Part shown: positions 15,695 through 58,938 of the stretch, piece after piece
Layout of the letters: each line of letters starts with the position of its first letter
Position numbering within the stretch: position 1 is the stretch's first letter
Origin: an uncultured Actinomycetota bacterium
Lineage (GTDB): Bacteria; Actinomycetota; Actinomycetes; Propionibacteriales; Nocardioidaceae
Assembly: GCA_963713035.1 (NCBI GenBank)
Contig: CAVQKB010000004.1
Location: 65,419 to 129,418, forward strand
Direction: 5' to 3'
Length of the DNA stretch: 64,000 nucleotides
Program-made: the position numbers and the translations under genes
Notes under the pieces: model-generated
The model's input: only the letters and a program-made list of their open reading frames with translations
Database searches by the model: none
What the model was told of the DNA's origin: nothing

Positions 15695-17038
15695 TCAGCG
15701 GCTGCGGGCCACGGCACAGTCGGTCGTGCCGACCAGGGGCAGCGCCTTCGGACTCACCACGATCCCGAAGGGCACGTCGGTGCAAGTGACCTCGTCGAGG
15801 CGTCCGGCCGCCCGCTCGGCGTAGAGCAGCGCGGCTCGCTTCGCACCGCTGACCCGCAGCCGACGCAGCACCGGGGTCGTCGTGCCGGACGCCTGCACCC
15901 CCACCTGTCCGCCGCGGAACGTCGACCCGGTGACCAACGGGCTCGCGGCGTCGAGGACGGCCACCCCGGCAGCGTTGTCGCGGAAGGTGCCGCCCCGCAC
16001 CGCGCCGCTGCTGCGGCCGGTGAAGCAGATGCCGCACTGGCCGTTGCGCTCGAAGCGGGTCGAGCGGATGCTCACCCGGTGCCGGCCCGTCAGCAGCACG
16101 CCGGCGCCGCTGTTGTCGAGCAGCTCCGAGCCGGTCATCTCCAGCGTCGTGCCCCGGCCACCCTCGTTGCCGTCGCGGCCCGACATCAGGACGCCGGCTC
16201 CTCCGCTGCTGGCCTCGCCGGACTTCTCGCTGCGGGCACCCGTGACGCGGACGCCGGTCAGCACCACCGAGGAGGTCGGCCCCCCGATCAGGCCGTTGGC
16301 CGCCCGCCGGCCCGTGTGCCGCAGGGTGAGGTCGGCCAGCTCGACGCGGCCGTCGGTCAGCACCAGCACGGCTACCTCCCCCGCGTCGGAGGCCAGGGTG
16401 GTGCGGCCCCGTCCGGCTCCGCGCAGCGTGACGCCCTGCAGCAGCACCAGCGACGAGTCCAGGCGGTAGCGGCCCGGGGCGAGCGTCACCGTCGACCCAG
16501 GCCCCAGCTCGGACAGCACCGTCGGCAGGTCGTCGTCAGGGCCGGCGTCCACGGAGGTGGCGCTCTCCTGGGCCCGTCCGGCCAGGGACGCCTTCAGCCG
16601 CAGCAGCACCGTCTGCGCCAGGGGTCCGCGCGCAGTCACGTCCCCGAGCCGCGCCTGCAGGTCGCGCTGGTAGGTCGCCACGTCGCAGTCGCGCTGCTGC
16701 AGCACGTCCCGGGTCTGGGACAGCGCGTTGCGCAGGCCGGTGTCGCCGCCCTGCGGGCCCACCGACGGGCTCGCCGTCGGGCTGGACGCAGGTCCAGACG
16801 TGGGGCCGGAGACGGCGGTGCCGTAGCCGTCGACGTACTGCTGGACCGCGCGGACCACGAGATCGGGGACGTCGGTGCACGCCTCCGCGGCAGCGCTCGG
16901 GTCTGCGCCCGAGGCGTCCGGGGACGACGCGCCCGACCCGGCCTGCTGCGGGGTCGACGCGTCGCAGCCACCGAGGCCGAGCGCCGTGGCCACGACGAGG
17001 GCGACGAACAGCCCGGGTCTCCCGAGAGGTCGGATCAC
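15695..17038 (-). CDS. Lipoprotein with right-handed parallel beta-helix repeats, translationally coupled to the giant gene
   Basis: GTG start at 17038 overlaps the giant-gene TGA (GTGA). Lipobox 'ALGLGGC'. The C-terminal half carries ~22-aa repeats ('VVLTGVRVTGA', 'LEMTGSELLDNSGAGVLLTG', 'VSIRSTRFERNGQCGICF', 'VRGGTFRDNAAGVAV', 'VTGSTFRGGQVGVQA') typical of PbH1 / pectate-lyase-fold proteins. Confidence 0.8.
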   Translation of the reverse strand: MIRPLGRPGLFVALVVATALGLGGCDASTPQQAGSGASSPDASGADPSAAAEACTDVPDLVVRAVQQYVDGYGTAVSGPTSGPASSPTASPSVGPQGGDTGLRNALSQTRDVLQQRDCDVATYQRDLQARLGDVTARGPLAQTVLLRLKASLAGRAQESATSVDAGPDDDLPTVLSELGPGSTVTLAPGRYRLDSSLVLLQGVTLRGAGRGRTTLASDAGEVAVLVLTDGRVELADLTLRHTGRRAANGLIGGPTSSVVLTGVRVTGARSEKSGEASSGGAGVLMSGRDGNEGGRGTTLEMTGSELLDNSGAGVLLTGRHRVSIRSTRFERNGQCGICFTGRSSGAVRGGTFRDNAAGVAVLDAASPLVTGSTFRGGQVGVQASGTTTPVLRRLRVSGAKRAALLYAERAAGRLDEVTCTDVPFGIVVSPKALPLVGTTDCAVARSR

Positions 17039-58300: not shown

Positions 58301-58938
58301 CCGGTGTCGTCGAGCGGGCAGGAGATCGAGGCCTGCTGGCCGTTGGTGCCGCCGACCGTCTTGCAGCTGCTCGTCGAGAGCGCCTTGGCGAGCGCCTCGA
58401 GGGCCTCGCGCAACCGACGGTTCGCCTCTGCCTGGGCGGCGAGCGCGCGACGGCGCGCCATCAAGACGTTGGCCTGCTGGAGCTGGCGCTGCTGCGCCTG
58501 CAGCGCGATTCCGCGCTCCTGGGGGGACATGGTCTTGCTGGCCTGGAGGGCCTGAGTGTTGTCCAGCTGGGCCTGCTGCTGGGCGCGCTGCAGGACCTGG
58601 GCCCGTTGCATCGAGCGGAGCTGCCGCTGCTGGGCAGCCAGCAGCTCGGCGAGCCGCTTGCGTGCCTGTTGACGCGAGCCGGCGACGACCACGAGCGGCT
58701 CATCCCGCAGCAGCGGCTCGACGGCGTCGGAGCCGGCGGCGGGATCCGAGGCGGGCGCGGGGGCCGTGCGGGAGGTCGGCGCGGAGGGGACGGCGGCGTC
58801 GGCCGGAGCTGCGACGGTGACCAGCAACCCGGCCATCATGCTGAACGCGGCCATCAGCGCGGTGGTGCTGCGGGCACGACGAGAACGCAGCCAGGCGTGC
58901 ACGGCTGTCGCCGCGACGCTGAGCGCGCGCAATCTCAT
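52296..58938 (-). CDS. Giant protein, intact N-terminal block (~2,214 aa): signal peptide, Q-rich coiled coil, (GT)n linker, metzincin-like module, P/T/A linker, long G/T/S/A/V-rich beta-solenoid-like region
   Basis: This is the real part of track ORF 50803..59037. 'MRLRALSVAATAVHAWLRSRRARSTTALMAAFSMMAGLLVTVAAPADA' is the signal peptide. Translation becomes Arg/Pro junk after '...RLTGADAAVVGVSS' (~52295), and the sequence continues in the frame of ORF 50565..52355. Confidence 0.85.
57886..57918 (-). other. Metzincin-type zinc-binding motif [11 protein letters not shown] (module 1, N-terminal)
   Basis: Minus-strand codons cac gag atc ggc cac acc ctc ggt ctc gag cac. Context '[48 protein letters not shown]'. 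Confidence 0.8.
58198..58263 (-). repeat. Hexanucleotide (GGY-ACC)n microsatellite encoding a (Gly-Thr)n linker
   Basis: The plus strand reads ggtgcc/cgtgcc/ggtgcc/ggtccc x3/ggtgcc/ggcacc/ggtgcc. It translates to 'SGTGAGTGTGTGTGTGTGTGT'. Confidence 0.9.

Follow-up and report, generated by a model that had tools for sequence, protein, structure and literature searches.

We analysed a 64,000-nt stretch of contig CAVQKB010000004.1, from an uncultured member of the Actinomycetota (hereafter the window; all coordinates are window positions), and in particular a long coding tract on its minus strand which an earlier note had read as one giant surface-protein gene interrupted by frame breaks. The window has a G+C content of 72 % and the periodicity of G+C at third codon positions (GC3) gives an unbroken minus-strand coding signal from ~59054 to 17079. 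The giant gene as deposited occupies 17035..58938 (minus strand) and comprises ~13,900 codons with ~86 frame switches, most of them bridged directly by related sequences. It starts with ATG at 58938-58936, preceded by an AT-richer intergenic stretch and by GGGGA (58943..58947, minus strand), a motif resembling a ribosome-binding site (RBS) that lies 4 nt upstream of the ATG by direct reading. It ends with TGA at 17037-17035. The single direction of the tract, its ATG with the RBS-like motif and a signal peptide, and its stop had all been claimed before, and our reading agrees with each of them: the coding signal is continuous in both the GC3 and the Viterbi traces, and the end features were read directly. 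As deposited, the longest minus-strand open reading frame (ORF) is 2,744 aa long and follows the true frame for 2,254 aa; the largest genuine ORF pieces lie at 59054-52289 and 23041-17035. Once restored, the tract contains 13,934 codons and encodes a product of ~13,896 aa counted from Met-1. We conclude that 58938 to 17035 is most likely a single giant gene whose ~86 breaks most probably stem from small indel errors in a metagenome consensus built from Nanopore reads only. Its host is most likely an uncultured Nocardioides-like soil actinobacterium.

The coding frame was traced along the tract with a frame-aware Viterbi path in which stops were forbidden. This path contains 86 frame switches, every one between 52288 and 23042 (~1 per 340 bp), and the zone 23042..52288 (minus strand) holds all of them as private 1-2-nt indels. 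Frame segments inside this zone are as short as 26-150 nt. On either side of it, clean single-frame zones extend over 59054-52289 (6.8 kb) and 23041-17079 (6.0 kb); under a uniform break rate, the absence of breaks from these two ends (12.7 kb) has P = 6e-17. When a 7-state Viterbi path was run on the whole window, the 22 kb of flanks appeared as ordinary single-frame genes with no sign of breaks. Junctions were reproduced to the nucleotide by tblastn with intact relatives: neighbouring high-scoring segment pairs with 86-100 % amino acid identity lie 0-3 nt apart and in different frames at 52288/52286, 50628/50626, 50519/50517, 48813, 48262/48259, 42252, 41035/41032, 39872, 39432 and 38779.

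Among GTDB species representatives, the sole true orthologue (locus L006) is encoded on an 860-kb contig of MFD01275.bin.2.138 ('uncultured Actinomycetota bacterium'), a long-read metagenome-assembled genome (MAG) from Microflora Danica. The other close relatives are in ENA assemblies ERZ25039498, ERZ25039533 and ERZ25039536; their contigs have Flye-style names and presumably come from the same project or workflow as the Microflora Danica MAG. The workflow of the relatives was Nanopore-only metaFlye with one Medaka round. Loci L003 and L004 are on contig_80849 (34.9 kb, another sample), whose 3,991-aa protein is referred to as P0096. L005 is a syntenic locus on a 2.26-Mb contig (ERZ25039498 contig_9024, around 858,918-894,116), with 40-53 % protein identity to the window gene. 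L001 is on ERZ25039533 contig_35140, and P0098 is a protein of an Ornithinibacter MAG.

Contig_80849 is colinear with the window from 51924 to 16894. In L003 one clean frame, the 3,991-aa ORF, runs over 11.2 kb corresponding to window 50464-39325, where the window is broken ~28 times. In L006 a single frameshift beside a (Gly-Thr)n tract is followed by at least 5,432 aa of open frame, which continues beyond the end of the examined locus and spans a region with 27 window breaks. The ORFs called at L005 (11,732 aa, an 87-aa scrap and 2,110 aa) amount to ~13,930 aa, which agrees with the 13,934 restored window codons, and the β-helix gene found downstream in the window comes after them here too. 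The final 3,166 aa of the 11,732-aa ORF are colinear with restored window residues 9040-12074, and the 87-aa scrap is frame-shifted sequence whose homologous stretch is continuous in the window's intact C-terminal ORF. Together, intact frames in the relatives directly bridge 71 of the 86 breaks. These results bear out the central reading of the earlier note, one giant gene of ~13,900 aa whose frame breaks are not biological. In the relatives the locus does not consist of many short genes, and no real stops accompanied by an RBS and a start were seen.

The 773-aa ORF, a fragment of the giant gene, clusters at ≥90 % identity with P0096. Word-indexed homologue searches gave, among the matches listed, only proteins of at most ~3.5 thousand aa and did not recover the identical 773-aa fragment; since even this fragment was missed, such searches cannot judge the absence of giant orthologues. 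A homologue search with the N-terminal part did not reach the L005 N-terminus. More distant homologues, at 34-40 % identity, are present at L001 (3400-26570) and L002 in the same set of ENA assemblies. In their tracts, one long intact ORF is surrounded on the same strand by coding sequence whose frame changes every 100-400 bp. The frame-break artefact is thus seemingly a recurrent one for this family in the ENA assemblies.

Comparison at the DNA level revealed two kinds of blocks. Window and contig_80849 are ~99.8-100 % identical over 43.9-37.4, ~29-28 and 24.35-16.9 kb and ~80 % identical over 51.9-43.9, 36.8-29.5 and 27.7-24.4 kb. When L006 was compared with window 60144-42361, the flanking genes were mostly 84-94 % identical; identity rose to 94.5-98.6 % at 54-50 kb and was 76-86 % over most of the remaining gene. 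The giant gene therefore appears as an allelic mosaic in which 94-100 % identical blocks alternate with 76-82 % blocks, across samples and lineages. Because high-identity blocks are shared with L006 despite flanks at 84-94 %, the block-wise identity is probably real. This pattern suggests recombination or segment exchange inside the hypervariable centre of the giant gene. Contig_80849 itself carries the variable part and the C-terminus only and resembles an alternative-haplotype contig.

In the near-identical blocks, window and contig_80849 differ almost only by isolated single-base indels (24 counted). Over a 5.5-kb stretch in which both kinds of event were tallied, there were ~9 gap events and 28 substitutions. 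The indels are private to one assembly or the other. The window is clean over 38044-36341, where L003 carries private 1-nt deletions; the frame of the window breaks at 23047, where it lacks 1 nt present in L004; and a break at 18711 splits the C-terminal gene of L004 at a point where the window is intact. No break position is common to all assemblies. At the private indels at 38334, 38038, 37400, 39431 and 18711, all in ~100 %-identical blocks, 2-4 mismatches are clustered within 10 nt, and such sites look like local consensus glitches rather than independent mutations.

The divergent blocks were read in the L003 frame. No stop was found in their 2,045 codons, nor in 3,589 codons when the near-identical block was included, and 41-49 % of the changed codons in the divergent blocks are synonymous. 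The absence of stops and the synonymous bias show that real alleles under purifying selection underlie the divergence and that the damage consists of small indels only; on the same figures, the idea that the divergent blocks are raw-read noise was rejected. Breaks are denser in allele-divergent blocks (3.65/kb) than in near-identical ones (1.05/kb, p = 5e-7). Two other candidate causes were also discarded. A homopolymer-deletion signature does not fit, as the shifts are balanced in direction (+1, n=40; -1, n=46), clean and broken parts of the tract do not differ in homopolymer content, and only half of the 24 well-resolved indels touch a 2-4-nt run. Polishing failure in near-identical DNA repeats does not fit either, as the internal repeats are merely 25-40 % identical in protein. 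TRF detected only two short arrays, with periods of 15/30 and 27 nt, and no DNA repeats of module length, which, together with the low identity of the internal repeats, makes repeat collapse unlikely.

The clustering of the errors might be explained as follows. If the sample held several strains with common flanks and gene ends and with central alleles ~20 % divergent, mixed or thin pile-ups over these alleles would degrade the consensus and produce clustered indel errors. Several points weigh against the single-gene, consensus-error explanation. Error clustering of this kind is unusual, with 0 breaks in 35 kb of ends and flanks vs 86 in 29 kb, and the strain-mixture or low-coverage account of it is itself a supposition. 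The origin of the errors is deduced from assembled sequences rather than from reads, and the Nanopore origin of the window from its relatives and the style of its contig. Fifteen breaks (39324-36340 and 33256-31992) are bridged only indirectly; their assignment to error would depend on the complementarity of single indels between L003 and the window and on the ORF length of L005. Finally, the functional reading given below proceeds by domain analogy, and ~60 % of the protein is without a family match.

A decaying pseudogene, formerly a giant gene, in which ~86 real frameshift mutations would have built up within this lineage, is in our opinion an unlikely alternative. The deposited sequence truly contains the breaks, the clean flanks indicate that the assembly is not uniformly poor, and giant genes are costly and often strain-specific. 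But dozens of neutral indels should come with many stops, and none was found in 3,589 codons, where changes are moreover biased towards synonymous ones. The indels are private to each assembly even in ~100 %-identical DNA, and their ratio to substitutions is far above evolutionary norms. The break patterns of contig_80849, L001, L005 and L006, which are independent relatives out of one Nanopore-only project, also differ, from 1-2 breaks to many, and uniform decay cannot account for the two break-free ends (P = 6e-17).

We regard as quite improbable an assembly chimera, with strain variants or diverged internal repeats mis-joined so that no cell has the exact 42-kb sequence. The block-wise identity to contig_80849 and L006 (~99 % vs ~80 %) would agree with it, and errors concentrate in the divergent blocks, as expected from mixed reads of two haplotypes. 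Against it, the tract is colinear without rearrangement with three assemblies from other samples and its total length agrees with L005; the weakly conserved internal repeats, with no module-length DNA repeat among them, make collapse unlikely; and the block-wise identity is also seen against L006, a distinct lineage, which fits real recombination. We consider very unlikely an operon in which several large genes follow one another on this strand, their true boundaries concealed among the frame breaks: the matrix metalloproteinase (MMP)-like module near both ends, as though two proteins were joined, the L005 calls of 11,732 + 87 + 2,110 aa and homologue-search matches of just 1.4-2.4 thousand aa could be taken in its favour, but the L005 split amounts to two frameshifts in a stretch which the intact ORF of the window covers without interruption, the breaks share no position across all assemblies, segments are as short as 26-150 nt, the shorter database 'proteins' lie in equally frame-broken or contig-limited loci, and the L005 11,732-aa ORF covers the equivalent of nearly the whole tract.

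Read as a single gene, the tract encodes a modular protein. Pfam and NCBIfam recognised four kinds of modules: an M10-like stretch near each end, FG-GAP/VCBS in two blocks, RTX, and two Calx-β domains. By our inventory, the module kinds are the signal, a helical Q-rich region, (Gly-Thr)n, the MMP-like module in two copies, a β-meander unit, FG-GAP/VCBS, ~2,900 aa without a Pfam match, RTX, Calx-β, a Pro-Val-Gly (PVG) linker and a transmembrane anchor. The earlier estimate of at least eight module types is thus reasonable. All features below are on the minus strand.

The N-terminus starts with a predicted Sec-type signal peptide (58795..58938, 48 aa by inspection), which reads MRLR...RSRRAR, a hydrophobic core and APADA/A, and is conserved in L006. 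It is followed by a Gln/Ala/Arg-rich region (58378..58695), probably helical (coiled-coil-like) as judged from composition alone, and by the (Gly-Thr)n low-complexity linker (58195..58302), the site of the single L006 frameshift. This linker is encoded by a GGC/ACC-type microsatellite; the frameshift is at ~10700 of L006 and the window is intact there. An N-terminal compact MMP-like (metzincin) module comes next (57847..58140), with its motif at 57886-57918 and a Met-turn, and it aligns with the C-terminal copy described below. The intact N-terminal body (52289..57846) consists of a Pro/Thr-rich linker and then a β-rich region without a family match, in which the first β-meander units begin near 54221.

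The central part is dominated by an array of ~38 copies of a ~120-aa all-β unit, which we call the β-meander unit (38071..54221). With an iterated hidden Markov model (HMM), the unit was found ~38 times between restored residues ~1,600 and ~6,970, the array being interrupted by the two FG-GAP/VCBS blocks. No Pfam match was obtained for it, either with window pieces or with the near-identical P0096. Two consecutive units (~42642-43391) were modelled with AlphaFold2 from a 19-row alignment at pLDDT >90, and the model is all-β with unusually long strands of 13-18 residues. An apparent third 'unit' in the modelled piece has a low pLDDT because it already belongs to the beginning of FG-GAP block B. 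Foldseek against the PDB gave a best E of 0.075 and TM-scores of at most 0.27, mostly for porins that matched as meanders only, and a sequence search of the PDB returned non-significant matches only. In an exhaustive profile search, the unit was detected in 1,678 of 1.84 billion representatives. Its carriers are up to 7,479 aa long, are named 'hypothetical' or 'VCBS repeat-containing', and include a partial protein from a Microbacterium isolate.

The FG-GAP/VCBS β-propeller blocks are located at 44361..45424 (block A; Pfam FG-GAP_3/FG-GAP on the near-identical P0096, E 8.5e-51) and 41746..42578 (block B; Pfam on P0096). On P0096, PF13517 scored 170.9 bits over 9 stretches and PF01839 146 bits, and the motifs of both blocks were read in the window. 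The ~2,900 aa that follow the array (29363..38070) are without a Pfam match; by eye they contain a recurring ~100-aa 'DV(T/R)F...EF.L.G' unit and β-rich segments. No family match was obtained for the 38.07-29.36 kb region, clean relatives included.

The Ca-binding region (18586..29362) contains RTX (GGxGxD-type) repeats, recognised by Pfam HemolysinCabind and by a PDB match to the RTX part of CyaA, and related unassigned repeats. PF00353 gave E 5e-50, with 9 stretches at the C-terminal end and 2 farther upstream. Two Calx-β domains (17818..18495) follow, with PF03160 at 72.8 bits vs a cut-off of 27 and matches in the PDB to the Ca-binding domains (CBD) of NCX. The C-terminal compact MMP-like module (17452..17757) carries HELGHVLGLEH (17494-17526) and a Met-turn. 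In Pfam M10 this copy scored 30.5 bits and the N-terminal one 23.2 bits, for a cut-off of 24, and the matches cover only profile positions ~82-139 of 159. The two end modules have in common an invariant W, AAG.GW, HE.GH.LGL.H and the Met-turn, and H91, E92, H95, G98, H101 and M108 are invariant in both copies and three homologues. An AlphaFold2 model of the C-terminal module reached pLDDT 82 and pTM 0.79, of moderate confidence given the shallow alignment (5 rows). In Foldseek it matched the catalytic domains of MMP-12/13 (prob ~1.0, TM-score 0.55-0.60, E ~7e-3) and selecase, a minimal peptidase (TM-score 0.5-0.6).

The protein ends with a Pro-Val-Gly-rich linker (17242..17322; GPVQV/GPVLV, a 15-nt tandem repeat of 5.4 copies), probably of variable length, just before the C-terminal hydrophobic helix PPWWLLVLAGLTVATLLG and the basic tail RARGGPR, which finishes as LPMLGA before the stop (17038..17130). 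The layout of helix and basic tail is also present in L005 and P0098; the LPxLGA ending is common to L005 only (ALPILGA). The tail had been described as LPXTG-like. A scan of the giant protein with NCBIfam sorting-signal HMMs gave no match at E≤0.01, and the VAPTG of the window is not conserved (MARTPAW in L005, GSAPASV in P0098), and so that part of the proposal is not upheld. No sortase gene was found among the 10 flanking ORFs scanned. From these sequence features, the C-terminus is predicted to be a membrane anchor, made of the hydrophobic helix and the basic tail, and not a demonstrable LPXTG/sortase signal. The broader proposal of an anchored surface fibre or adhesin is supported, with an anchor of the membrane type.

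Immediately downstream lies a β-helix gene (NosD/pectate-lyase-like; 15695..17038; Pfam Beta_helix 3.4e-23), whose product begins with a lipoprotein-type signal (..LGLGGC). The GTG start of this gene and the TGA of the giant gene overlap by 4 nt (GTGA). In L005 the β-helix gene (16330-17637 of that locus) is in the same order, with a 4-nt overlap and a lipoprotein-type signal (...LLAAGC). The pair is therefore conserved between the window and L005, and the genes farther downstream differ. The flanking genes of the window encode a PALP/CBS enzyme, a GDSL lipase, BaxI, enolase, a methyltransferase, MazG, Mfd and LigD; the ≥90 %-identity cluster of the enolase includes a protein from a Nocardioides sp. 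MAG. No genes of a type I secretion system (T1SS) were found among the annotated neighbours (mfd, mazG, eno, ligD and the β-helix lipoprotein gene). In the plus-strand flank at 60317-61770, the GC3 trace goes +0/+2/+0, and no Pfam match was obtained for the ORF at 60336-61253; either a pair of genes or a frameshift within a flanking gene could lie behind this.

By analogy with characterised domains, the product is most likely a secreted, membrane-anchored, Ca2+-binding fibre or adhesin of ~13,900 aa (~1.4 MDa). Its secretion route, its topology and the roles of its modules may be pictured as follows. The N-terminal signal peptide would take the unfolded chain through Sec, and the C-terminal hydrophobic helix would hold the end in the membrane with the basic tail in the cytoplasm. 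The Pro/Val/Gly linker could span the wall. RTX and Calx-β would fold upon binding extracellular Ca2+ and give a stiffened stalk, the ~38 β-meander units would form a long extender, and the FG-GAP/VCBS propellers probably serve as heads that bind ligands. Of the two compact MMP-like Zn modules, one would lie close to the membrane and the other far from it, and they could process or shed the fibre or cut substrates. The β-helix lipoprotein, probably co-translated, may be a conserved partner.

Giant RTX adhesins (LapA/LapF, MpIBP of Marinomonas primoryensis, SiiE, FrhA) are known from diderm bacteria, where they are exported C-terminus first by a type I secretion system and carry an N-terminal retention module. 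The window protein shares with them the MDa scale, tandem β-rich extenders, RTX near the C-terminus, ligand-binding modules within the array and the logic of a surface fibre. Unlike them, it carries a Sec-type signal at its N-terminus and a membrane helix at its C-terminus, lacks T1SS genes among its annotated neighbours, has no BIg-like extenders (no Big/BIg Pfam match anywhere) and carries two MMP-like modules. It resembles sortase-anchored LPXTG adhesins (e.g. Ebh) in its N-terminal signal, repeat-rich body, and C-terminal hydrophobic segment with basic tail, but has no conserved LPXTG/LAXTG (VAPTG in the window, none in L005) and no HMM match. Like matrixins (MEROPS M10A, e.g. MMP-12 and karilysin) and selecase, both end modules have HExxHxxGxxH and a Met-turn, and the predicted fold superposes on MMP catalytic domains. 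In contrast to matrixins, the modules are ~100-110 aa rather than ~160 aa long, have fewer strands, show no pro-peptide cysteine switch and are embedded at both ends of a giant fibre; their activity is a prediction.

True homologues exist among the Actinomycetota giants annotated as 'VCBS repeat-containing', 'Calx-beta' or 'beta strand repeat-containing', such as WP_360134932.1 (Microbacterium sp. NPDC019599, 4,617 aa, partial) and P0098. They have in common the ~120-aa β-meander unit, FG-GAP/VCBS, RTX and Calx-β with the AAGWGW...HELGHVLGLEH module, and the terminal helix. They are annotated by repeat type only, most are partial and none has been studied. The full architecture of ~13.9 thousand aa, from signal peptide to anchor, is visible only by combining the window with L005 and L006.

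The restored protein had been placed among the largest reported for bacteria, which overstates its rank: predicted bacterial proteins of >30,000 aa, up to 85,804 aa, have been described, Actinobacteria included, and Actinobacteriota are the most frequent source of giant genes outside the Omnitrophota (West-Roberts et al. 2023, bioRxiv 10.1101/2023.11.21.568195). Surface proteins are a major class of huge bacterial proteins (PMC11573180). As in both of these studies, the window gene is a metagenome-derived giant ORF obscured by assembly problems. The West-Roberts giants (>30,000 aa) have many transmembrane segments and SecA-like domains, whereas the window protein is a two-ended anchored fibre of ~13.9 thousand aa; what breaks up its gene is not contig breaks but indel errors within contigs assembled from long reads.

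Genes of this kind in public Nanopore-only MAGs end up as dozens of bogus 'hypothetical proteins'. A 773-aa (42186-44507) and a 401-aa fragment of the giant gene are indeed stored as separate predicted proteins (NCBI/ENA), and each would count as an orphan protein of its own. Because the breaks are concentrated in allele-divergent blocks beside neighbours that look perfect, they will escape the usual measures of MAG quality. Censuses of giant genes and databases of protein families that draw on such data will contain too few giants and too many orphan families. Two features of the locus are particularly noteworthy, namely a rare repeat fold without a Pfam or PDB match and a giant gene shattered by clustered long-read consensus errors.

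Together, these results document a ~1.4-MDa surface protein in an uncultured soil actinomycetotal lineage, ~60 % of it 'dark' sequence. Its architecture (Sec signal, twin MMP-like modules, β-meander, VCBS, RTX, Calx-β, transmembrane anchor and coupled β-helix lipoprotein) departs from that of T1SS-dependent RTX adhesins. It is tempting, though doubtful at present, to go further and regard the β-meander unit as a previously undescribed fold that builds a new Gram-positive surface fibre, held by a C-terminal helix anchor, autoprocessed or shed by its MMP-like modules, and endowed with a recombining, hypervariable cassette centre that is exchanged between lineages. If this were true, the recombining hypervariable centre could serve strain recognition or the evasion of phage or predators.

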